A stretch of 64,000 nt of DNA from Candidatus Aldehydirespiratoraceae bacterium (GTDB taxonomy: Bacteria; Actinomycetota; Acidimicrobiia; Acidimicrobiales; Aldehydirespiratoraceae): contig CBDEVU010000007.1 in NCBI GenBank assembly GCA_965243715.1, positions 203,480 through 267,479 on the forward strand, read 5' to 3'. The notes beneath the pieces are model-generated. The model did not search any database. It was not told where the DNA came from and saw only the letters and a program-made list of their open reading frames with translations. Both the position numbers and the translations under genes were made by a program. This document shows, piece after piece, positions 32,246 through 53,048 of this stretch. Each line of letters opens with the position of its first letter. Position 1 is the stretch's first letter.

Positions 32246-33472
32246 ATGGCTGCTGTCACCCCCAACGAAGAGGACCTGCCTCTTATCATCTCGGTCGACG
32301 ATCACGTGATGGAACCGCGCGACTTGTGGCAACAGCAACTCCCACCGAGTTTGCGGGCCCGGGGGCCACGAGTCGTGCAGGAAAAGGTGCGGTTGAAGTT
32401 CGAGGGCGGCCATTACGGCTTCGAGCGCAACGATCCTGACGGCCACCTCTGCGATCTCTGGCTCTACGACGACCTAGTAACCCCGACAGGGTTTCTCCAC
32501 GGGCCAGCGGGTGTGCCGCGTGAAAAGCAGCGCAACGTTGCTGCGACTTATGAAGATCTTCGACCGGGAACGTGGAACCAGGCCGATCGGTTGACCGATA
32601 TGGATCTCAACCATGTTGAGGCAGCCATCAACTATCCGAACATCTTTCCCCGCTTTTGCGGCCAGGGTTTCCTAGAGCGAGAAGACAAAGGCCTAGCCCT
32701 GCAGTGTCTTCAGATCTACAACGACTGGATCATCGACGATTGGGGTGGAGGCGCGGGCCGGGGTCGACTCATTCCATTAACCCTGCTGCCGTTGTGGGAC
32801 CCCGCGCTGGCCGCTCAGGAAGTCCGTCGCTGCGCGGCCAAGGGCAGTTATGCGATTGCCTTCTCCGAGAATCCATCCAAGTTGGGGTGCGCCACGATGT
32901 ACAGCGGTGAGTGGGATGTCCTTTGGCAGACATGCTCTGAGACCGACACTACAGTCTCGATGCACATCGGATCCTCTTCGTCGATGCCCACCACCTCCGC
33001 CGATGCCCCGCTGGCGACCTCAATGTCGCTGTACGCCCAAAACGCCGAAGGGTCGATGGTTGACTGGGTATTCTCCGGCACCCTCTCGCGGTTCCCGACG
33101 ATCAAAATTGCCTACGCCGAGAGCCAGGTCGGTTGGATGCCGTTCCAAGTGGAACGCATGGATAGCGTATTTCGCGAAGGCCGGGGTGGGGTCGGCGGTG
33201 CCGGTCCCTTGCCTAGCGAAATCGTGCGTGGCCGAGTCTATGGCTGCATTTTTGACGATCTAGTAGGACTCAAGCAGCGTGACGATGTTGGTATCGATCA
33301 GATTCTGTTCGAGACCGACTATCCGCATTCCGACGGAACCTTCCCCGACAGTCGCAAGGTGGCCCACTCACTGTTCGCCGCGGTCGCCATGAACGCCGAG
33401 GAATGTACCAAGGTGATGCGGGGCAACGCCATCCGCGCCTACGGCCTAGAACGGTTCGCCATTACGCAGTGA
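32246..33472 (+). CDS. amidohydrolase-2 family metal-dependent hydrolase/decarboxylase
   Basis: 408 aa with ISVDDHVMEP...FETDYPHSDGTFP, a TIM-barrel metal-ligand pattern. Confidence 0.83.
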   Translation: MAAVTPNEEDLPLIISVDDHVMEPRDLWQQQLPPSLRARGPRVVQEKVRLKFEGGHYGFERNDPDGHLCDLWLYDDLVTPTGFLHGPAGVPREKQRNVAATYEDLRPGTWNQADRLTDMDLNHVEAAINYPNIFPRFCGQGFLEREDKGLALQCLQIYNDWIIDDWGGGAGRGRLIPLTLLPLWDPALAAQEVRRCAAKGSYAIAFSENPSKLGCATMYSGEWDVLWQTCSETDTTVSMHIGSSSSMPTTSADAPLATSMSLYAQNAEGSMVDWVFSGTLSRFPTIKIAYAESQVGWMPFQVERMDSVFREGRGGVGGAGPLPSEIVRGRVYGCIFDDLVGLKQRDDVGIDQILFETDYPHSDGTFPDSRKVAHSLFAAVAMNAEECTKVMRGNAIRAYGLERFAITQ

Positions 33473-34778
33473 CAGGGCCGAGAACCCGGTCGAGGTAGTC
33501 GTTGGTGAAACGACTCTCGGGGTCGGCAAGTTTTCGAGCCGCGGCGAAACGGCTCCATTCGAGATAACGGGGTTCGAGTGATGCCGCTGTTTCGGAATGA
33601 AGTTTTCCCCAGTGAGGTCGACCGCCCGCAGCCCGAGTGATGTCCCCTAATCCGTTGAAGTAGCTCTCGTACGGCGTTTTCCAGTAAACGTGAGCGGCGA
33701 GGTAGCCGGTAGGGCGACCATAGGCAGTCGAGAGGGGAATATCGTCGCCAGCGGCGCAGCGAACCTCGATCGGAAAAGTCACCGGCGAATCGAGCGTGCG
33801 AGCAAAGTCACGGACTTCGTTGATGACATCGATAAGGGCATCGAGGGGTACAGCCCACTCGGTTTCGTAGAAGTGAACCCAGCGGGGGGTGGTGAAAACC
33901 CGGTAAGAAACATCTCGGTAGTCACGGGCTCCGGTGCTGGCCTCAACGATTCGAGCAATCGCTGGCGCAGTCCGCGGCGCTCGCCTAGCCACTCGATTCA
34001 CCAACCCAAAGGCCAGGTTCTCACCCCCGAGCTTGTCGAGGACGTATCTATGGCGCGGCAACGGTTCCGCTATGTCTTGGCTGCGGGTGTTGATCTTGAC
34101 CGCGGCCTTACGCCCGCTGGGCATGAAGTAGAACTCGGTGTGGTCGTGGGTGCCGATGAGTTCAGGCCACTGCTCGAGGACGGCTTCGAGGGGTTCAGTC
34201 TTTTCCGATGCGTGGAGGCGAAAAGCGGGCACGGTCTGCAAGGTGACGCGCGTCAGCAAACCAAGAGCGCCCAGGCCGACCCGAGCGCAGGCCCATAACT
34301 CGGCGTTGGTCGCCGGGTCGATATCGAGCGTTTCGCCGGTTCCGTCGATGATTCGCAGGCCGCGTACCTGCGTCGCCATCCCACCGTATCGGAGTCCCGT
34401 GCCGTGGGTTCCAGTGCTGATAGCCCCTGCGATGCTCTGCTTGTCGATATCGCCCATATTCTCGAGAGCCAAGCCGTGAGCGTCAAGCAGATGGTTAAGG
34501 GACCTGACGGTGATGCCCGCGCCGACCGTGACAAGGCCCGAGGCCGAGTCGATGGCGTGTAGTTGGTTCAGTCGTTCGATGGTGACGTGAACGTCGGTCG
34601 TCACGGCAATTCCGGTAAAGGAGTGACCGGCCCCCATGACTTTGACCCGTCGGCCGTCGACCGCCGCTTGGCGCACCAGCGCCGTCAACTCGTCTTCGGA
34701 TTGGGGCCGCGCAATAACCGCTGGACGGAACTGTTCCAGCTGACTCCAGTTGGCCACCGTCCCGCGTCGCATCACCAA
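33462..34778 (-). CDS. FAD-linked oxidase, D-arabinono-1,4-lactone / L-gulonolactone oxidase family
   Basis: 438 aa with an FAD_binding_4 N-terminus (GAGHSFTG) and the ALO C-terminal RPHWGKLH. Confidence 0.84.
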   Translation of the reverse strand: MVMRRGTVANWSQLEQFRPAVIARPQSEDELTALVRQAAVDGRRVKVMGAGHSFTGIAVTTDVHVTIERLNQLHAIDSASGLVTVGAGITVRSLNHLLDAHGLALENMGDIDKQSIAGAISTGTHGTGLRYGGMATQVRGLRIIDGTGETLDIDPATNAELWACARVGLGALGLLTRVTLQTVPAFRLHASEKTEPLEAVLEQWPELIGTHDHTEFYFMPSGRKAAVKINTRSQDIAEPLPRHRYVLDKLGGENLAFGLVNRVARRAPRTAPAIARIVEASTGARDYRDVSYRVFTTPRWVHFYETEWAVPLDALIDVINEVRDFARTLDSPVTFPIEVRCAAGDDIPLSTAYGRPTGYLAAHVYWKTPYESYFNGLGDITRAAGGRPHWGKLHSETAASLEPRYLEWSRFAAARKLADPESRFTNDYLDRVLGPVTA

Positions 34779-35767
34779 TGCCGCAAATCAATCGGCAAAA
34801 CGTCGATGACTTCTGGGCCGTCGACTAGCCACATCACTTCGTGGCGGGCCACCGTCGGATCGAGGTGGGCGGGGGCCATTCTGATGCGATCATTGAGAGT
34901 GATCGAGTCGGGGAAGTCGGCCACGACCGTGGTGTGTTCGTCGCTCACAATGAAGATCTCGCCGTTGGGCCAGTGGGGGTTCCCGTGGTCCATACCCAAG
35001 GCCTTCAACCCGCCGTTGACGACCTGCCAACCCTTGGGACTGGTGGAGATCACGGAACACTCGAGAAAGATCGCCTGAACGAAAGGCAGATCGAGGGTTG
35101 CGTATTGGGTGTCGCCCAGCAAGAACGTGCCCGCTTGAATCTCCGTGGCCCACGTGTTCGTGTCGTAGGTGCCGGTACCACCGGCGGAGATAATGTCGCC
35201 GCCCACGGCAGTAGCCGCCATCAGCAGATCAGCCATCGACTCCTCGACCCGACGGACCCGTTGGACGCGATCTTTAACCATCATCAGGTGACCCTCGTAA
35301 CCCATCACGCCCCGCACATGGAGGCCACGCGAACGAGCCTGATCCGCCAGACGTCCCGCCGCGGCCGGATCGCAACCCCCGCGGGGCAGACCAACCTCGA
35401 CGTCGATCAGCACCTCTTCTACGCCGGCGGTAGCGGCTCGTTGGATACCGAACTCAGAGTCAACAGCGAGCGTGACCCGAGCGTCGACCGCGGCCAGACG
35501 ATCTAGCAAGTCCGGATCAAGTACCTCATTGGCGAGGAGCAGATCGTCGCCGAGGCCCGCGTCGGCTAGGCCTTCGACTTCGCGCACCGTCGCACACGTG
35601 AAGCCACGGTGTCCGGCGCTAGCTAGGCGGCGGGCCAGCGCTGTACACTTGAAGGCCTTGACGTGGGGGCGCAGGCGCTCACCGGGAAGGGTTTCTCCGA
35701 TGGTTTGGATGTTGTGGTCAAGCGCGGCGCGCTCAACGACTAACGCCGGAGTCGGAATCGCCATCAA
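34772..35767 (-). CDS. alanine-racemase-fold PLP enzyme (D-serine dehydratase-like / D-threonine aldolase family)
   Basis: 331 aa with an N-terminal PHVKAFKC (PLP lysine context). Confidence 0.75.
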   Translation of the reverse strand: MMAIPTPALVVERAALDHNIQTIGETLPGERLRPHVKAFKCTALARRLASAGHRGFTCATVREVEGLADAGLGDDLLLANEVLDPDLLDRLAAVDARVTLAVDSEFGIQRAATAGVEEVLIDVEVGLPRGGCDPAAAGRLADQARSRGLHVRGVMGYEGHLMMVKDRVQRVRRVEESMADLLMAATAVGGDIISAGGTGTYDTNTWATEIQAGTFLLGDTQYATLDLPFVQAIFLECSVISTSPKGWQVVNGGLKALGMDHGNPHWPNGEIFIVSDEHTTVVADFPDSITLNDRIRMAPAHLDPTVARHEVMWLVDGPEVIDVLPIDLRHW

Positions 35768-35792
35768 GTCACCGTACTAGTAGCAGCGAAGC

Positions 35793-36920
35793 TCAGCCAT
35801 AGACCTGCTCCAGAGCGCTTAGTGGATCGACATAGTTGAGATTCTGGGCCTGCGCGACATGGCTTTCGGTGACTAGGCCACCGCAGAGGTTCAACCCTCC
35901 TAGCAGATGCGGGTCGGCGAGAAGGGCAGCTTGAGGGCCACGGTCGGCGAGGGCAAGAGTAAACGGCAAGGTCGCGTTGTTGAGGGCGTAGGTAGAGGTA
36001 CGGGGAACGGCGCCGGGCATGTTGGCCACGCAGTAGTGAACGACATCGTCGATGACATAGGTCGGCTCGGCGTGGGTAGTCGGGCGAGACGTCTCAAAGC
36101 ATCCTCCTTGGTCGATGGCCACGTCGACCAAAACCGAACCCGGCTTCATCTGTCTCACCATGTCGGCCGTCACCAACTTAGGGGCGGTCGCCCCCTTCAG
36201 CAGAACCGCTCCGATCACTAGGTCGGCGGCTAGGACTAGCTCCTCGAGCGCACCCCGCGTGGAGTAAACCGTCTCGAGTTCAGCCCCGAAGCGACGGGCC
36301 AGACGATCGAGCACTTCGAGGCTGCGGTCAAGCACCGTGACTTGCGAGCCCAAACCAATGGCCATCTCGATGGCATTCTCGCCGACCACCCCACCGCCGA
36401 TCACCACGGTGAGCGCGGAAGCCACACCGGGGACGCCGCCGAGGAGCAAGCCCGCGCCGCCGTTGGGCGCCTCGAGGCAGGTGGCCCCAGCTTGAATCGA
36501 CATCCGGCCAGCCACCTGGCTCATCGGCGCCAGCAACGGAAGACCGCCCGCCGCGTCGGTCACGGTCTCGTAGGCAATACAGGTCGCCCCGCTCGCCATC
36601 AACTCGTCGGTCTGGGGAACATCGGGAGCCAGATGCAGATAGGCGAAGAGCACTTGATCGCCGCGCAACATTGCCCGTTCCGCCGTTTGGGGTTCCTTGA
36701 CTTTGACGATCATCTCGGCCGCCGTAAACACGGTTGTCGCGTCGGCGCCGATCGTTGCGCCAGCCGTTTGGTAGTCAATGTCTGGAGCCCCGATGCCGAT
36801 GCCCGCTCCGGTCTCAAGCATCACGGAGTGTCCGTGCGCCACCAGTTCGCGAACCCCGGTCGGGGTGAGTCCAACGCGCCGCTCGGCCACTTTGACTTCC
36901 TTAGGCACACCGATTTTCAT
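35793..36920 (-). CDS. ald: alanine dehydrogenase
   Basis: 375 aa with MKIGVPKEVKVAERRVGLTP... and the NAD fold VIGGGVVG. Confidence 0.93.
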   Translation of the reverse strand: MKIGVPKEVKVAERRVGLTPTGVRELVAHGHSVMLETGAGIGIGAPDIDYQTAGATIGADATTVFTAAEMIVKVKEPQTAERAMLRGDQVLFAYLHLAPDVPQTDELMASGATCIAYETVTDAAGGLPLLAPMSQVAGRMSIQAGATCLEAPNGGAGLLLGGVPGVASALTVVIGGGVVGENAIEMAIGLGSQVTVLDRSLEVLDRLARRFGAELETVYSTRGALEELVLAADLVIGAVLLKGATAPKLVTADMVRQMKPGSVLVDVAIDQGGCFETSRPTTHAEPTYVIDDVVHYCVANMPGAVPRTSTYALNNATLPFTLALADRGPQAALLADPHLLGGLNLCGGLVTESHVAQAQNLNYVDPLSALEQVYG

Positions 36921-36981: not shown

Positions 36982-38169
36982 TCATAGTCGGCGAGGTAGG
37001 TAACTCGACGCCCACGCGGTGACGAGGGCCGCCGCACTTAGCACGAAGTAGAAAACCCAGAACGGGGCGATCAACAGAGTTAGGGCGGCTGCCCCCGGCC
37101 CGGCCATGGAAGACATCTCGCGGTAAGACGAAAATACTGTCATCATCGCCGTGCGTTCGCGTGGCTTCACCGTGCGCATAAAAGGAATATTGCCGAGTAC
37201 ATCGAGCCATGTGGCCCCCAGAGCACCAGTAATCCAAAAGACCATGCCGTACGTTTCTGCTTCTCCCACCGCCCCAAGCGCCGCGGTAGATACTGCTATA
37301 AGCAAGAAGCCGACTACGATGACCGCTCTGGTGCTGGTGCGATCAACGACTCGCAGCACTAACGGACTCAGCAACAACAGGGCCGCGACCACAGCAACAA
37401 TTCCGCCCGCGGTCCACTGCGGCAAGCCTGCCTCCAGCGCGTAAAGCGGGGCGTAGATGAACAGCGAGACCCAAAAGGTCCCCCGCACGAGCGTTATGAG
37501 GTAGGCGATACGAAGGTAGCGCTGGCGAAAGTAGCGTGGGATGTTCTCCAACGGACTCGGCGCTCGACTCTTCGGCGTGGAGAGGGCCGGGTTGTCCCCC
37601 AAGCGGATCACCCAGAAGTAACCCAAGGCCAACAGGGAAACCCCGCCAGAGAGCCAAAATGGCAGGGTTTCGCTCACCTCGGTATAGATAAAGATTGAGA
37701 CCAGCGGCCCAACCATCCAGGCCACCCCGCTGTGGACCATGCGTCGACTCTCGTTTCGAGCCAACTCCCGCTTGCCGATGTAGTCCATGATGAACAGTGA
37801 GATGCACACGGCGAAGATCGCAGCCTCGGCGCTGATCAGTCCAATGGCGAGGGCCAGGGTCGGGCCGTTGGAGACTACCGCTATGAGGTTGGCCCCAACG
37901 AACGCGGCGAACGCCAGCGTTACGACCCACCGCCGAGCCATCCACGACTCGAGGCGCCCCACGTTGAGCGTCGCCGCGAGGGCAATAAACGACCCGGCAA
38001 AAAAGGCGTTCGTTACCGCTGCTTTGGACTCCAAGGCTGAGAGTGCAGCGAGTGGGAGCACGGTGACCGCCATCGACCGGGCGAGCCCCTCCAACCCTCC
38101 GAGCCGGGCCAGCGCACGGCCTCGGTCGTCGCGGATGACTTGGTTAATCGCATGGGGCCGATTGAACAA
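36982..38169 (-). CDS. MFS transporter
   Basis: 395 aa, about 12 hydrophobic helices. Confidence 0.78.
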   Translation of the reverse strand: MFNRPHAINQVIRDDRGRALARLGGLEGLARSMAVTVLPLAALSALESKAAVTNAFFAGSFIALAATLNVGRLESWMARRWVVTLAFAAFVGANLIAVVSNGPTLALAIGLISAEAAIFAVCISLFIMDYIGKRELARNESRRMVHSGVAWMVGPLVSIFIYTEVSETLPFWLSGGVSLLALGYFWVIRLGDNPALSTPKSRAPSPLENIPRYFRQRYLRIAYLITLVRGTFWVSLFIYAPLYALEAGLPQWTAGGIVAVVAALLLLSPLVLRVVDRTSTRAVIVVGFLLIAVSTAALGAVGEAETYGMVFWITGALGATWLDVLGNIPFMRTVKPRERTAMMTVFSSYREMSSMAGPGAAALTLLIAPFWVFYFVLSAAALVTAWASSYLPRRL

Positions 38170-38219: not shown

Positions 38220-41054
38220 CTAGCCGAGGTGATACATCGGCGCGGCGGGCTTGAGCGGTCGGGAATACCACAGCGGACGTCGGAGCCCGTCGGGACCTGG
38301 GGCGGGGCGGGTGTGGGCCATCCAATCGAGGTAAGCCTGTCGTGATTTGGCCGTATCGACCTCCACATCGCCGTACTGATCGTCGGATTCGGCCGGGGTA
38401 ACAGTGACCCGCTGGTGCCAGCAATGCATGCCGGAAACGGGATCGGGTTGCACCGCGAAGGTCAGGTTCTGATGCACTCCCGAATCGTGCCACCAGATGC
38501 GCTCGGTGTCGGCATCGTTGGACTTCCACTTGCGAACCCCGTCGGTACGCCTGAGCTTCCACAACGTAGCGTCCTGAGTTATCTCCGCTTGGCCGGCACC
38601 CCACGAGCGAGCCTGGTCGGTTTCGAGACGCCAGCGGCCCATGTGATGAGAGGCCGCCACCACGCCGGGACGGATGCCTTCGGTGCGCCACGCCCGGATC
38701 ACGAAGTGGCCGATACGGGTGGTGATTCGAACCAGACCGTTCTCGTCGATGTTTAGCTTCTCGGCGTCCTCGGGGTGAATCCAGAGCGGATGACGGTGGC
38801 TCAGTTCGTTAAGCCACTTCGAGTTGCTGGAGCGGGTATGGATCAGCGTGGGGATGCGAAACGTCGGCAACAAGATGCGTTCGTTGCCCGCTAAGTCGAG
38901 AGTTTCATGATGGACGTGGGAAGGAATCCAGGTCGGGGTGGCGTATTCGGGCCAACCCCACTCCTTGAGCGTGGAGGAAAACAGCTCCAACTTGCGAGAC
39001 GGGGTGGGGAATCCTTCCTTGACTTCACCGTCGATCTCAACTCCGGGCGAGCCGTCGCCGAGTGGGGCCAAGGCAATCTCGTCGAGACCCTCAGCCGTTC
39101 CATCCCAAGTGCCGATGGTGCCGGGCTGGCGATAGACACCTTGGTCGTCTTTTACACAACCTTCGATGGCTGCGGGCGAAACGAGGCGCTCATATGGTGT
39201 GACGACATCGCCAGGCACCGCGTAGCTGCCCACGTCGCGCATGTATTCGAGCGGGGTCTTCTCGGCGCGGGCCGCTTCTTGGGCCAGACCGGGCACCGAC
39301 TCGGCAAACAACGTGGCGTAGTACTCGTCGACGGTGATCGGCGTGCCGGGCCGTTCAGTGGACTCAAACCATTGGCGAATACCACGGGCACCGTCGGGAT
39401 CGATGTGCCAGGAAAGGTCGATCAGAAACTCGTTCTCTTCCCAGACCTCGCCCGGGTTGAACTCGTGAGTGCGACTCTCGTGGGTGATTTCTTCGCCGCG
39501 AATTTCGGCGTAGCGCCGCAGCACGGGTTGGCGGAAACCAATCCAGCGGCCCGCGTGGGTCTCGAAGCTGGCCAGATCGTGGCGTTCGGTACCGACTCCC
39601 ATCGGCAGGACGTAATCGGCGAACCAGGCGGTTTCGGACCATGTTGGGGTGAGCGCGACATGGCACTTCACCTTGTTTTGGTCCTTCAACGCCTCCAGCC
39701 AAGTAAACCCGTCCGGGTTGGTCCAGATCGGGTTATAGACGCGGCTGAAGTAGACGTCGAGGCTACCTCGGCCCTCGTTGAGGAAATGAGGCAAGAGGAT
39801 CGACATCTCGTGATGAGAGAGCGGGAACTCCTGGGGCCAGGTCAGTTCGTTCCACTGATGCAACTCCGGCGCCCCTTTGGGTTGGCGGGGCTTGAATTTG
39901 TTCCACCCCGCGCCGCTCGTGCCACCCACCGTGGCGACCGACCCGGTAAGGACGTTCAGGAAGAACAAACAGCGCGCCGTTTGCCAACCACCCAGGTTGC
40001 CCGCCGCGGAGGCGCGCCAATTGTGGGAGGCAAACTTGGTTGGATGCTCGCCGATGAGTTCGGCGATGTCGCGAATCTGAGCCGCGTTAATGCCACAGAC
40101 TTCCTCGGCCCGCTCTGGGGTGTACTCGGCGTATTCATCGAGCCAGGCTAGTTTCAGCGAAGCAAACTCGACCGGTAGATCGGGGCGGGTCTCGCGCAGG
40201 TAGGTTTCCCAGTTCACCCAGCGGCGCACGAACTCTTGGTGCCAGTCATTACTTTCGATAAGCAACCGGGCGATGGTGAGTAGCAGGAACGGTTCGGTGC
40301 CCGGCCAGGTGGGCAACCAGTGATCGGCCTTGGAGCCAGTGTTTGATAGCCGCGGATCGACACAGATCACTGTGGCGCCCTTGCCTTGAGCTTCGATGAT
40401 GCGTTGGGCGTGCGGGTTGAAGTAGTGACCGGCCTCGAGGTGTGAGGAGATCAAGAAAATGACTTCGGCGTTGGCAAAATCAGCCGACGGACGGTCGTGC
40501 CCCATCCAACTTTGGTAGCCCATACGAGCATTCGACGAGCAGATGTTGGTGTGGCTGTTATGGCCGTCGACGCCCCACGCTTTGAGGACCCGTTCGGCAT
40601 ACCCGTCCTCCCCCGCCCGCCCAACGTGATACATCACGCCGTCGTGGCGGCCAGCGTCTAGCGCCACGCCGATGCGGTGGGCGATGTCGGTGAGTGCTTC
40701 TGACCAGGTCACCTTCTCCCAACGGCCGCTACCGCGCTCGCCGACCCGGCGCAACGGGTGGAGGATGCGTTCGGGGTCATATACCTGATTAAGCGTGGCC
40801 GGACCCTTGGCACAATTGCGGCCCCGACTCGCCGGATGGAGCGGATTACCTTCAATTTTGTCGATCTCGCCGGTGTCGTGATTGACGTAAGCGAGCAGGC
40901 CGCACGCCGCCTCACAGTTGAAGCACGTAGTCGGGATGAGGCAGTGATGCTCTTCGGCCCGGTTAGGCCAAGCCTGTGGGTTGAGGGAGGTGACGTCGTG
41001 CCAATCCTCGTGCGGAGGGTACGGGCGGAGGGGGCCATGATTGAGGTCAGTCAT
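38220..41054 (-). CDS. molybdopterin (bis-MGD) oxidoreductase catalytic subunit, no Tat signal
   Basis: 944 aa with the N-terminal FS0 motif CFNCEAACGL...RGRNCAKG. An in-frame TAG lies 5 codons upstream of the ATG, which leaves no room for a twin-arginine leader. Confidence 0.86.
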   Translation of the reverse strand: MTDLNHGPLRPYPPHEDWHDVTSLNPQAWPNRAEEHHCLIPTTCFNCEAACGLLAYVNHDTGEIDKIEGNPLHPASRGRNCAKGPATLNQVYDPERILHPLRRVGERGSGRWEKVTWSEALTDIAHRIGVALDAGRHDGVMYHVGRAGEDGYAERVLKAWGVDGHNSHTNICSSNARMGYQSWMGHDRPSADFANAEVIFLISSHLEAGHYFNPHAQRIIEAQGKGATVICVDPRLSNTGSKADHWLPTWPGTEPFLLLTIARLLIESNDWHQEFVRRWVNWETYLRETRPDLPVEFASLKLAWLDEYAEYTPERAEEVCGINAAQIRDIAELIGEHPTKFASHNWRASAAGNLGGWQTARCLFFLNVLTGSVATVGGTSGAGWNKFKPRQPKGAPELHQWNELTWPQEFPLSHHEMSILLPHFLNEGRGSLDVYFSRVYNPIWTNPDGFTWLEALKDQNKVKCHVALTPTWSETAWFADYVLPMGVGTERHDLASFETHAGRWIGFRQPVLRRYAEIRGEEITHESRTHEFNPGEVWEENEFLIDLSWHIDPDGARGIRQWFESTERPGTPITVDEYYATLFAESVPGLAQEAARAEKTPLEYMRDVGSYAVPGDVVTPYERLVSPAAIEGCVKDDQGVYRQPGTIGTWDGTAEGLDEIALAPLGDGSPGVEIDGEVKEGFPTPSRKLELFSSTLKEWGWPEYATPTWIPSHVHHETLDLAGNERILLPTFRIPTLIHTRSSNSKWLNELSHRHPLWIHPEDAEKLNIDENGLVRITTRIGHFVIRAWRTEGIRPGVVAASHHMGRWRLETDQARSWGAGQAEITQDATLWKLRRTDGVRKWKSNDADTERIWWHDSGVHQNLTFAVQPDPVSGMHCWHQRVTVTPAESDDQYGDVEVDTAKSRQAYLDWMAHTRPAPGPDGLRRPLWYSRPLKPAAPMYHLG

Positions 41055-41069
41055 CAGGGTGGAGGACTC

Positions 41070-42581
41070 CTAGGAAAGCGGCACGGACTGACCGGCGCGA
41101 ACGAATGAATCTTCATACGACCACATTCCGCCGATCGCCGCGATACCCGCTGCAGCAGGCAGGAGCGGTCCCGATTCGGTGATGAGGGTAATAATGACGA
41201 GGGCGGCGGGCAGGAGCAAGCCGACTAGGACGCCGATACGGAACCGAGTGCGGTAGGTGCCAGCCGTCATCTGATGAATCGCCGCCTCAACGTGGGGCGT
41301 ACCCGCTGAGCTGACTTCCACAGCAACTAGCGAAGCGGTGGCGAGGGCGCCGCCCAGCAACGACCAGCGAACCGGGTTGGTGGCGGGCAGGTCCATGAAC
41401 AGGTCCATGATCGCGTAGCTCGCGCCTCCCGCTGTCACCGTCTGCGCCAGCAATGTCGGCAACAAGAGCGGGGTCTGCCACAAATCTCGGCCCTCACACT
41501 GGCCAAACAACATGGCGGTGTAGCCCGCGGTACCTGCCGCGAGCACCACTGTGGGGATAGCGATGACCTTGATCAAAGTCTCGTTCTCGGTGAGTCCCGC
41601 TACCCACCAAACGGCAACGCAGAGGGCAAAACCCATAAGAATATACGCCCCCTTGACCAGCCAGGATTCCCAACTGCCTCTAGTGATGAGGTAATGGAAA
41701 CGGGTGGGCTGCTTGAGGTCGGCGATCAACAAGATGCCGGTGAGGCCGAGGAAGGCGCCCGCGATCATCGGGGGAACTATCCCCACGGCGGCCTGTTCGC
41801 GACCGTGTCCCATAAGGACGAACAGGGCGGCCACCAACATGACCCCCGCGGCGATACCTTTGGTGACGAGATAGCCCGAGACTTTCGCTTTCCAAGTCAT
41901 CGGGTGTGGGGTGGTGTAGGCGGTGCGAGCAATCACCCCAGGTGACCCCACGGGCATAGTCGGGTGATGGGGAGTAGTGTCGGCCCAGATCAGGCCATCG
42001 TTGGCGATAGCGGTCCGGAGGGGATTGAGCGACGCCTGATCGGCGCCACGGTAGTACACCTTCGGATTCGTCCCCTGTTCGGGTGAGCGCACGGCAACAT
42101 CTTCGCTAGCAATGATCTTGGTGGCCTCGTTGAACGGATTATCGAGATCGGCGACCACGATGGCGTGGGTGGGACAGACCACAACGCACGATGGCTCAAG
42201 GCCGACCTCCACCCGGTGGTTGCAGAAGTTGCACTTCTGGGCTGTGTTGGTGGCCGGATTGATGTACAGCGCGTCGTAGGGACAGGCGTTCATGCAACCC
42301 TTGCAACCAATGCAGTGATCGTCGTTGAAGTCGACCACGCCGTTATCGGCTCGGTAAAGTGCGTTGGTCGGACAAATCGACATGCATGGGGCGTCTTCGC
42401 ATTGGTTGCAGCGCATGACCGAGAAGTGGCGGCTGACGTTCGGGAAGGAACCCGTCTCTATGTATTTTACCCAGGTGCGGTTCACCCCTAGGGGTACATC
42501 GTGTTCGCTTTTGCACGCCACAGTGCAAGCGTGACAGCCAATGCACGATTCGCTGTCTAGTAGGAATCCCAGTCTGGTCAC
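41070..42581 (-). CDS. fused 4x[4Fe-4S] ferredoxin (NrfC/PsrB-like) + NrfD/PsrC-like polytopic membrane anchor
   Basis: 503 aa with a GTG start. Four Cys groups are present: CIGCHACTVAC, CNQCEDAPCMSIC, CIGCKGCMNAC and CNFC...CVVVC. About 300 aa of TM helices follow, and there is no signal peptide. Confidence 0.84.
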   Translation of the reverse strand: MTRLGFLLDSESCIGCHACTVACKSEHDVPLGVNRTWVKYIETGSFPNVSRHFSVMRCNQCEDAPCMSICPTNALYRADNGVVDFNDDHCIGCKGCMNACPYDALYINPATNTAQKCNFCNHRVEVGLEPSCVVVCPTHAIVVADLDNPFNEATKIIASEDVAVRSPEQGTNPKVYYRGADQASLNPLRTAIANDGLIWADTTPHHPTMPVGSPGVIARTAYTTPHPMTWKAKVSGYLVTKGIAAGVMLVAALFVLMGHGREQAAVGIVPPMIAGAFLGLTGILLIADLKQPTRFHYLITRGSWESWLVKGAYILMGFALCVAVWWVAGLTENETLIKVIAIPTVVLAAGTAGYTAMLFGQCEGRDLWQTPLLLPTLLAQTVTAGGASYAIMDLFMDLPATNPVRWSLLGGALATASLVAVEVSSAGTPHVEAAIHQMTAGTYRTRFRIGVLVGLLLPAALVIITLITESGPLLPAAAGIAAIGGMWSYEDSFVRAGQSVPLS

Positions 42582-52286: not shown

Positions 52287-53048
52287 GTGGATTTCGTCAC
52301 CGTTACCGGCCTCGTGATGTTCGCCTTGGTCGTGGGCGCTTACGGAACCATGATCGGGGCGGGAGGTGGGTTCGTACTCATCCCGGGGCTGGTAATTCTC
52401 TTCGATCTCACAGGAGTAGAGGCCGTCGGCACTGGTGCGATTGTCCTCGCCGCGATCGGCCTGGCGGGGGCTCGTACCTACCAACAAGCTGGCATGGTGG
52501 ACGTTGGTGCCGCGGTCTGGTTCGCCGCGGGAGCGGTACCAATCGGCCTAACGTGCGCGGCACTGCTCGCCAATCGCATTGACTCGTCGCTTTTCATCCG
52601 CGTGCTCAGCGTAGTCCTATTAGTTTTGGCTGGACTCGTGCTATTTGGCCCCCAGCCGCGGGAAACCGGCGACACATCCGCCAGACCGCCCCGCCGCCAA
52701 GCGCTCTATATTGGCGGAACCGGTGTCGGTTTCGTTTCGGGCACTTTCGGTGTGGGCGGCGGCCTACTAACCGTGCCGTACCTAGCCACAGTGCAACGCC
52801 TCGACCCGCACCGGGCAACGGCCACCACCGCGGCAACGGCGATGGCAATCAGTACCGCCGGAGCAATCGGCCACACAATAGCGGGCAACATAGTGTGGGC
52901 AAAGGCCCTGGTATTGATGATCGGTGCGGCGATCGGATCGACGTTAGGCGCACGATTCGCGGGCCGACTCCGAGCCCGAACCGTGCAACTCCTCCTAGCG
53001 ACCGGTCTGATCGGTGCGGGGGTGCCTCTATTTGTCCAGGGCGTCTAG
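52287..53048 (+). CDS. TauE/SafE (TSUP) family anion exporter
   Basis: 253 aa with 7-8 TM helices and Gly-rich repeats. Confidence 0.82.
   Translation: MDFVTVTGLVMFALVVGAYGTMIGAGGGFVLIPGLVILFDLTGVEAVGTGAIVLAAIGLAGARTYQQAGMVDVGAAVWFAAGAVPIGLTCAALLANRIDSSLFIRVLSVVLLVLAGLVLFGPQPRETGDTSARPPRRQALYIGGTGVGFVSGTFGVGGGLLTVPYLATVQRLDPHRATATTAATAMAISTAGAIGHTIAGNIVWAKALVLMIGAAIGSTLGARFAGRLRARTVQLLLATGLIGAGVPLFVQGV

Follow-up and report, generated by a model that had tools for sequence, protein, structure and literature searches.

A signal-free molybdoenzyme with a fused iron-sulfur/NrfD subunit in Acidimicrobiia and several other lineages: a candidate cytoplasm-facing sulfite:quinone oxidoreductase

The sulfite dehydrogenase SoeABC, described from Allochromatium vinosum, Aquifex aeolicus and Ruegeria pomeroyi, combines a Cys-ligated molybdenum-bis(pyranopterin guanine dinucleotide) (Mo-bisPGD) subunit carrying the [4Fe-4S] cluster FS0 with a four-cluster iron-sulfur (FeS) protein and a cofactor-less NrfD-type membrane anchor; its A and B subunits lack signal peptides and sit on the cytoplasmic side (N-side) of an inverted anchor (PMC8076601, PMC10100899). 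SoeABC is the known example of a sulfite dehydrogenase anchored by NrfD on the cytoplasmic side, and no other NrfD-type complex is assigned to the N-side in the literature; reports of SoeC are limited to Proteobacteria, Clostridia and Aquificae (PMC8076601), and SoeC sequences cluster by themselves, with less than 25% identity to other NrfD proteins (PMC6303296). Here we describe a two-gene operon, BC-A, in a stretch of 64,000 nucleotides from Candidatus Aldehydirespiratoraceae bacterium (Actinomycetota, Acidimicrobiia; GenBank assembly GCA_965243715.1, contig CBDEVU010000007.1, positions 203,480 to 267,479 of the forward strand), hereafter the window. The operon encodes a molybdoenzyme for which a cytoplasm-facing orientation is well supported and for which recurrent gene neighbours make the oxidation of sulfite a reasonably likely function.

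BC-A has the same three modules as SoeABC, the same absence of signals from its A and B parts and the same N-side placement on an inverted anchor. The gene layout differs: SoeABC comes from three genes arranged A-B-C, and in BC-A the B and C parts make up one chain that is encoded ahead of A. SoeA has a mass of about 109 kDa, similar to the roughly 106 kDa of the A subunit described here. The parts of the operon are as follows (basis of each assignment in brackets).

41070..42581, minus strand: fused electron-transfer and anchor gene BC, 503 residues (open reading frame (ORF), translation, Pfam Fer4_11 and NrfD)
41997..42581, minus strand: B domain, residues 1-195, with 16 invariant Cys and no signal peptide (Cys motifs, invariant columns)
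41073..41894, minus strand: C domain, residues 230-503, with eight NrfD/PsrC-type transmembrane helices (AlphaFold2 helices, Foldseek, charge bias)
41055..41069, minus strand: BC-A spacer, 15 nucleotides (direct sequence reading)
38220..41054, minus strand: catalytic gene A of the Mo/W-bisPGD type, 944 residues, without a twin-arginine translocation (Tat) signal (ORF, Pfam, AlphaFold2 model)
40812..40925, minus strand: FS0 [4Fe-4S] motif of A, C44-x2-C47-x3-C51 ... C81 (invariant in 59 sequences)
40539..40541, minus strand: codon of Cys172 (in HTNICSS), the predicted Mo ligand (profile alignment to PsrA)

The BC gene opens with a GTG codon behind the Shine-Dalgarno sequence GGGAGGGGAG, this being the earliest start codon after an in-frame stop, and the A gene opens with ATG 15 nucleotides past the end of BC. 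The TAG stop of BC and the start of A share one frame (window 41055-41072), and the TAG overlaps the AGGAG ribosome-binding site of A, an arrangement that suggests translational coupling. The shared frame appears incidental, because the spacing between the two genes differs among relatives, from -43 to about 250 nucleotides, and no genuine fusion of BC with A was seen. Neither ORF can be extended at its 5' end, the BC start being the first after a stop and A being preceded by the TAG of BC, and the gene pair reported by a first-pass annotation is therefore confirmed: a 944-residue Tat-less subunit of the bis(molybdopterin guanine dinucleotide) type with FS0 (ORF 38220-41054; C44, C47, C51 and C81; no RR motif) and an in-frame stop five codons before its start (the TAG of BC), next to a single signal-free 503-residue partner that opens with a ferredoxin Cys motif (the first at residue 13) and runs from four clusters (sixteen Cys in four groups) into an NrfD/PsrC domain (Pfam PF03916).

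Subunit A matches Molybdop_Fe4S4 (PF04879), Molybdopterin (PF00384) and Molydop_binding (PF01568), all above the Pfam cut-offs, and its four FS0 Cys are invariant in 59 family sequences. Ahead of FS0 stands the motif YPPxxxWxDW..LDxxAWP, which is common to all homologues of A and which follows the signal peptide in the relatives that bear a Tat signal. In a profile of the 59 members, Cys172, kept in at least 90% of them, lies opposite Cys173 of Thermus thermophilus PsrA, which we take to be the Mo ligand of that enzyme, and Cys172 is predicted to ligate Mo in A. The AlphaFold2 model of A (predicted local distance difference test score (pLDDT) 84.9) has ArrA (6cz7) and PsrA (2vpw) as its nearest solved folds, with template modelling scores (TM-scores) of 0.76-0.78 at 19-21% identity; the profile match to PsrA has an E-value of 8e-51, and A carries about 180 extra residues. 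FS0, the Molybdopterin and Molydop_binding domains and a protein residue (Cys, Sec, Ser or Asp; here Cys) at the Mo-ligand position, which mark the catalytic subunits of the complex iron-sulfur molybdoenzyme (CISM) superfamily, are thus all present in A. No curated equivalog cut-off is reached; the highest scores are those of PhsA (NF012032; 194 against 694 bits), TtrA (98.7 against 1750) and, for the B domain, TtrB (161 against 416), and the narG model TIGR01580 gives A 20 bits against a cut-off of 1084.

The sixteen Cys of BC fall into four ferredoxin-type groups (C13/16/19/23, C58/61/66/70, C90/93/96/100 and C117/120/132/136) and all of them are invariant across 36 homologues. Pfam places Fer4_11 at residues 53-144 and NrfD at residues 226-486 (63.7 bits against a cut-off of 25.8). 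PsrB is the closest solved relative of the B domain (2vpw_B, E-value 7e-48, residues 2-181 aligned to 2-181), and TtrB, at the score given above, is its top NCBIfam match. The C domain is modelled by AlphaFold2 as helices 230-256, 263-289, 307-330, 334-360, 373-392, 402-424, 444-468 and 473-497 with pLDDT above 90, and it superposes in Foldseek on PsrC (2vpw_C, TM-score 0.69) and on ActC. Both the four-cluster ferredoxin module and the eight-helix NrfD/PsrC anchor of a CISM are therefore found here in a single chain; in the AlphaFold2 model of the whole chain the NrfD domain is confident and the FeS domain has pLDDT below 45, so that domain packing is not readable from this model. The site of FeS docking and quinone binding is probably built from two conserved loops on the cytoplasmic side of the C domain, DLKQPxRF and YTAxLFGQCEGRDLWQ, together with AGQSVPLS at the C-terminus. 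On the Natrinema halophilum plasmid (L003, 4038-5861) BC reaches 607 residues, because the linker that joins its FeS domain to its NrfD domain includes an acidic, Cys-containing insertion of about 100 residues (GGCACGGNCGCQ).

The orientation of the complex is supported by several kinds of evidence. No Tat or Sec signal was found in either BC or A, no twin-arginine motif occurs in the first 80 residues of A, and no RRx precedes FS0 in any of the 120 closest A homologues. Lysine plus arginine in the membrane loops, averaged over 36 BC homologues, number 11.7 on the side of the FeS domain and 0.25 on the opposite side. In homologous loops the counts on the FeS side and the far side are 11 and 3 in the window, 12 and 3 in Thermomicrobium roseum, 14 and 1 in Rhodococcus jostii and 10 and 1 in Natrinema, as against 4 and 13 in Sulfurovum and 2 and 8 in Azoarcus, the Tat-type relatives, in which the bias is the opposite one. 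Finally, the N-terminus of eight-helix NrfD proteins can be deduced to lie on the side of the FeS partner, from the published description of TtrC (PMC8076601) and from DmsC. A fusion of B to C is therefore topologically natural, and since the fused chain has no signal peptide its FeS domain and the N-terminus of its anchor must be cytoplasmic. The conclusion that A and the FeS domain face the cytoplasm is well supported, and the cytoplasm-facing arrangement proposed in the first-pass annotation stands on four independent lines: the missing signals, the positive-inside charge, its inversion relative to Tat-type relatives and the eight-helix PsrC/ActC-like model; there is no upstream start with a Tat motif, and the topology is not outward-facing.

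Among other described CISMs, PsrABC of T. thermophilus (2vpw) offers the closest solved counterpart for each of the three modules, with the Mo-ligand Cys aligned and an eight-helix anchor in common, but PsrA is Tat-exported, has 765 residues and is only about 20% identical to A, and the peripheral PsrABC subunits are periplasmic and the three chains separate. A Tat signal, a periplasmic location and a qualifying PhsA model score, by which PsrABC and PhsABC would be recognised, are not found in BC-A. TtrBCA shares the order B-C-A, the large A subunit and the match of TtrB to the B domain; it differs in that TtrA is Tat-exported, and BC-A has neither a Tat signal nor qualifying TtrA and TtrB scores. 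The anchor TtrC has nine transmembrane helices (PMC8076601). NarGHI, the classical CISM that faces the cytoplasm, has an Asp ligand and, beside NarH, a dihaem cytochrome b anchor, NarI, where BC-A has Cys and an NrfD anchor.

The comparison with SoeABC itself is made through published descriptions, and canonical SoeA is probably not a close relative of A. No SoeA was found among NCBIfam models, in the PDB or by tblastn in the plasmid collection, no SoeA-like Tat-less protein of about 960 residues was seen outside the BC-A family among the 150 best 50%-identity representatives, and a protein search seeded with the divergent Tat-less P0244 returned solely further members of the same family. Partial candidates for SoeA from Caballeronia, Novosphingobium, Photobacterium and Deinococcus were rejected as unrelated enzymes of 650-770 residues. 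The C domain is 29% identical to the ordinary Tat-type NrfD of Azoarcus, whereas SoeC stands apart from other NrfD proteins, and the taxa from which SoeC is reported do not overlap with those of BC-A. We therefore treat BC-A as SoeABC-like in its working and claim no membership.

The BC-A pair is a large, conserved, multi-phylum family and not a singleton. The protein database holds thousands of homologues of A and of BC; in each case the top 120 share 68-100% identity, carry generic names only and belong to Acidimicrobiia, Ilumatobacter and Ca. Poriferisocius, and all 120 best BC homologues have 475-535 residues and both domains. A scan of one genome per GTDB species gave more than 571 relatives, the best 80 of which are at least 53% identical over their full length and span eight or more phyla, with members in Acidimicrobiia, Chloroflexota, Gemmatimonadota, Acidobacteriota, Bacteroidota, Planctomycetota and Micrococcales. 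In the plasmid collection a Tat-less A with a fused BC occurs on a megaplasmid of T. roseum (56.6% identity), on pRHL3 of R. jostii RHA1 (55.8%) and in several haloarchaea (48-51%). B and C form one ORF in 74 of the 77 loci in which both domains were located, and are separate in three, namely the outgroup Sulfurovum and two contigs of metagenome-assembled genomes with possible frameshifts; the remaining loci are cut by a contig end or have no B/C domain upstream of A. The first-pass annotation had asked how widespread the fusion is, and the answer is a family in many phyla for which no clade of known substrate with the same fused architecture was found in curated models or searchable literature. 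Full-text literature searches turned up no account of the BC-A family or of any fused FeS-NrfD subunit, though such an account may still exist.

Several irregular loci were met along the way. Apparent triple fusions of B, C and A (long ORFs; P0371 and P0251) were discarded as artefacts of alternative-frame ORFs in high-GC DNA and of frameshifted reads; P0371, P0251 and P0245, all 50%-identity representatives, are riddled with frameshifts, and with their conserved motifs out of frame they can mimic a fusion or the loss of FS0. Four loci of Pyrinomonadaceae (L054, L065, L089 and L090) and one of Anaerolineae (L087) hold 1-3.3 kb of extra genes between BC and A, which encode members of the DinB_2 superfamily (in three of the Pyrinomonadaceae loci), DUF1905/OmdA, a GNAT acetyltransferase, a Uma2 endonuclease and unannotated ORFs; the recurring DinB_2 fold is one employed by thiol transferases.

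Outside the family, relatives of A at 29-43% identity (from a Sulfurovum mangrovi plasmid, the metagenomic entries P0247, P0282 and P0312, and Azoarcus KH32C) are all Tat-dependent with a clear RRxFLK motif and, where the context is known, have separate B and C genes, the order B-C-A and a TorD chaperone gene after A. The closest are the enzymes of S. mangrovi, P0247, P0282 and P0312, which are 38-43% identical to A over the full length, share the mature N-terminal motif YPPxxxW and the order B-C-A and join the family in a clade with 100% bootstrap support, the protein of plasmid pAZKH of Azoarcus sp. KH32C being more distant; they differ from BC-A in the twin-arginine signal on A, the separate B and C, the opposite charge bias of NrfD and the presence after A of TorD and an extra 4Fe-4S protein. 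The gene order B, C, A is thus that of ttrBCA and of the closest Tat-dependent relatives, and the earlier statement that it is the reverse of ttrBCA was wrong. In a neighbour-joining tree the fused Tat-less core (92% bootstrap) lies inside the 100% clade with the Tat-bearing YPP-motif proteins, which is separate from PhsA, DmsA and the Azoarcus group and has TtrA as a weak sister (31%). The simplest history would be that a Tat-exported B-C-A enzyme lost its signal, inverted the charge and topology of its anchor and fused B to C, in an order of events that we infer from these comparisons; through the fusion the FeS domain would be tied to the anchor at its cytoplasmic N-terminus. The Sulfurovum homologue was considered as a Tat-less, unfused intermediate and was ruled out, since its gene is frameshifted and a Tat signal, SRRSFLKG, is encoded immediately upstream in a different frame. 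On that plasmid (L005, 5830-9169) the A homologue, for which PLSDB gives no coding sequence, has its signal peptide, N-terminal part and C-terminal part spread across three or more reading frames and is either a pseudogene or an assembly error.

The function is suggested by the genes that recur around the operon. In 87 loci all ORFs were clustered and the recurrent clusters annotated; where two counts are given below, the first comes from strict tblastn and the second from clustering.

Metallo-beta-lactamase (MBL)-fold plus rhodanese protein, persulfide-dioxygenase-like: 17 / 28 loci, 13 of the 17 within 1 kb
SulP sulfate permease: 13 loci, directly after A in at least 3 (L072, L085, L086)
TusA: 11 loci, median distance 95 nucleotides, always co-directional
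DsrE2-like protein: 11 loci, median distance 609 nucleotides
BigR-like ArsR repressor: 8 loci, upstream
YeeE/Sulf_transp: 3 / 6 loci
Sulfide:quinone oxidoreductase (SQR)-like flavoprotein: 4 loci
pta: 5 loci, within 1 kb
Taurine-type ATP-binding cassette (ABC) transporter binding protein: 4 loci, upstream
xsc: 3 loci, median distance 63 nucleotides

At least one such sulfur gene is present in 24 of the 53 loci that have at least 15 kb, as a raw count. In two Acidimicrobiales loci (L011 and L019) whose A proteins are 74-75% identical to that of the window, the operon lies between pta and xsc within a taurine cluster, and the adjoining Xsc scores 997 bits against the TIGR03457 cut-off of 676. 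Arsenic, selenium and nitrogen-oxide genes are not recurrent among the top neighbour clusters. This tie to sulfite-generating metabolism is a further likeness to SoeABC, and from these neighbours we consider it reasonably likely that BC-A is a sulfite:menaquinone oxidoreductase and a functional analogue of SoeABC, the substrate, the direction of electron flow and the type of quinone all being deduced from sequence and context.

Xsc releases sulfite, and persulfide dioxygenase yields sulfite. In the proposed mechanism, sulfite would arise in the cytoplasm from organosulfonates through Xsc or from persulfides through persulfide dioxygenase; subunit A would turn it into sulfate at a Mo-bisPGD site with Cys172 as ligand, and the two electrons would pass from FS0 of A through the four [4Fe-4S] clusters of the B domain to end in the respiratory quinone pool. 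The sulfate would leave by a separate transporter and could be exported by SulP. The enzyme itself would probably be electroneutral, with energy conserved later, at the re-oxidation of menaquinol. Marine Acidimicrobiia are reported to be proficient users of taurine, and the disposal of their sulfite has been discussed only in terms of TauE (bioRxiv 10.1101/2024.12.10.627767).

Several observations weigh against this assignment. In the window no sulfite-producing gene adjoins the operon, the neighbours being EamA, a major facilitator superfamily (MFS) transporter and alanine dehydrogenase, with a TauE gene 10 kb off. About half of the long loci have no sulfur gene within 10 kb, and the probable distance of canonical SoeA from A, noted above, counts on the same side. 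The nearest solved or curated relatives (Psr/Phs, Arr and Ttr) are reductases. The Aquifex SoeABC/Sre enzyme is said to carry out sulfur-compound reduction too, and for that reason the catalytic direction is not readable from sequence.

If BC-A worked in the direction of its nearest characterised relatives, Psr, Phs and Ttr, it would be a cytoplasm-facing reductase that oxidises quinol and reduces tetrathionate, thiosulfate, polysulfide or elemental sulfur. Its best curated and solved matches are indeed PhsA, PsrA/PsrB, TtrB and ArrA, it has the gene order of ttrBCA, and the rhodanese-containing neighbours are able to make thiosulfate. We nevertheless judge such a reductase unlikely, as the PhsA and TtrA scores fall far under their cut-offs, most of the host organisms (marine Acidimicrobiia, Thermomicrobium, Rhodococcus and haloarchaea) live as aerobic heterotrophs, the linkage to SulP and to xsc, with its sulfite product, is at odds with reduction, and a pool of polysulfide or tetrathionate is not expected in the cytoplasm.

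The TusA and DsrE2-like genes, which adjoin BC-A in 11 loci of several phyla and are always co-directional with it, raise another prospect, in which the substrate would be carrier-bound sulfur: a persulfide or thiosulfonate on TusA/DsrE2 would be oxidised and its electrons passed to quinone. The short median distance of TusA fits such a substrate, as does the absence of persulfide dioxygenase from the flanks of 6 of these 11 loci. On the other side, TusA and DsrE2 are missing from the vicinity of the operon in most loci, among them the window and every marine acidimicrobial locus inspected, the xsc-linked loci deliver free sulfite, and we know of no Mo-bisPGD enzyme that acts on a protein-bound persulfide; a carrier-bound substrate seems to us quite improbable. 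An extended version is a long shot in the same degree: BC-A would have evolved separately as a Mo enzyme of the cytoplasm that oxidises TusA/DsrE2-delivered sulfur with quinone, and in which the fusion of B to C locked a formerly periplasmic NrfD module in the inverted orientation.

The substrate might also lie outside sulfur chemistry altogether (arsenite, selenite, nitrite, chlorate or an organic compound), with the sulfur neighbours reflecting co-regulation. The DMSO-reductase superfamily is catalytically diverse and its substrates are not legible in sequence, the best match by structure is to ArrA, sulfur neighbours are lacking in about half of the loci, and the genes around the operon in the window are amino-acid and sugar genes. 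Such a substrate is nonetheless improbable, given that the neighbours recurring at operon distance across unrelated phyla are specifically sulfite-producing or sulfur-trafficking and that arsenic, selenium and nitrogen-oxide genes are missing from the top neighbour clusters. Least credible of all is export of the enzyme through some unrecognised signal or partner, leaving the FeS and Mo subunits periplasmic: FeS subunits of the superfamily normally hitch-hike on the Tat signal of A and the nearest outgroups are Tat-dependent, but neither protein nor the 120 homologues has an RR motif, 5' extension is impossible, the loop charges point strongly to a cytoplasmic FeS side and show the reverse of the pattern in Tat-type homologues, and a signal-free FeS domain ahead of the first transmembrane helix is unable to cross the membrane.

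Maturation genes also accompany the operon in part of the family. A gene of the NarJ/TorD family (PF02613, 47 bits) follows A on the same strand at a median of 66 nucleotides in 11 loci of other phyla, and a gene for an Mrp/NBP35 Fe-S carrier follows it at about 40 nucleotides in 4 loci; by analogy with NarJ and NarG, both would fit cofactor insertion in the cytoplasm. The earlier observation that no chaperone gene is adjacent holds for the window and can be widened, since none lies within 10 kb on either side and tblastn found none in the whole window, but the absence is confined to this lineage.

Two plasmid loci are of interest in their own right. On the linear plasmid pRHL3 of R. jostii RHA1 (L002, 1-14769) the BC-A operon sits inside a dense sulfur island with three MBL-fold hydrolases, two DUF202 proteins, two ArsR regulators, DsrE, TusA, Mrp/NBP35 and an MFS transporter, which makes RHA1 a tractable cultured host for work on function. 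On the T. roseum megaplasmid (L001, 4084-4362) a 'metal-sensitive' regulator of the CsoR/RcnR/FrmR family stands directly upstream of BC. This family includes persulfide sensors (CstR), and by analogy the regulator may be a sulfur-responsive repressor of the operon.

The surroundings of the operon in the window include three further genes.

36982..38169, minus strand: MFS transporter, downstream and co-directional (Pfam MFS_1)
35793..36920, minus strand: alanine dehydrogenase, downstream and co-directional (TIGR00518 alaDH, 468 bits against a cut-off of 392)
52287..53048, plus strand: TauE/SafE sulfite-exporter family gene (PF01925, 144.8 bits; context only)

The MFS and alanine dehydrogenase genes are possible operon partners of BC-A, and both likewise lie downstream of the operon in one relative (L010). 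Past the MFS gene, window 33462-36920 (minus strand) encodes alanine dehydrogenase, a protein resembling the alanine racemase N-terminal domain and D-serine dehydratase, and an oxidase of the flavin adenine dinucleotide (FAD)/ALO type; this block is repeated after the operon in L010 and may be an amino-acid or aminosulfonate module tied to the enzyme. Alanine dehydrogenase (Ald) supplies pyruvate back to the taurine:pyruvate aminotransferase cycle (PMC10356861). The TauE/SafE gene, about 10 kb from the operon and on the opposite strand, may provide a second route of sulfite disposal in the same genome; TauE is also found at the edge of another locus, L006. A 414-residue ORF antisense within the A gene (window 38907-40151, plus strand) is of the spurious type usual in DNA of 62% G+C and is not a gene candidate. 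Neither a scan for promoters and terminators nor an Rfam search, which covered Moco riboswitches among others, gave anything informative in the surroundings of the operon.

Sulfite is a toxic and obligatory product of the breakdown of organosulfonates such as taurine and sulfoacetaldehyde and of the detoxification of persulfides. Metagenome surveys of sea and soil score its oxidation by SorAB, SoeABC, SUOX and AprBA/Sat, mainly in Proteobacteria (PMC7565560, PMC10944490). If BC-A is a sulfite:quinone oxidoreductase, it would be an unrecognised, energy-yielding sink for sulfite in abundant marine and sponge-associated Acidimicrobiia, the same sink would operate in Chloroflexota, Gemmatimonadota, Acidobacteriota, Bacteroidota and haloarchaea, and fluxes from organosulfur to sulfate would have to be reassigned. 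Were carrier-bound sulfur the substrate instead, reverse Dsr and sHdr would be joined by BC-A as a third cytoplasmic route of sulfur oxidation, one found in haloarchaea as well as in aerobic heterotrophs of many phyla. These readings are open to test in cultured hosts, namely R. jostii RHA1, T. roseum, Natrinema and Ilumatobacter. The family also offers a clean natural case of topology inversion, in which the charge bias of NrfD flips with the Tat status of its partner and a fusion fixes the orientation. This clear inversion, the breadth and abundance of the family and the part that it probably plays in the sulfur cycles of sea and soil are the reasons for which it deserves attention.

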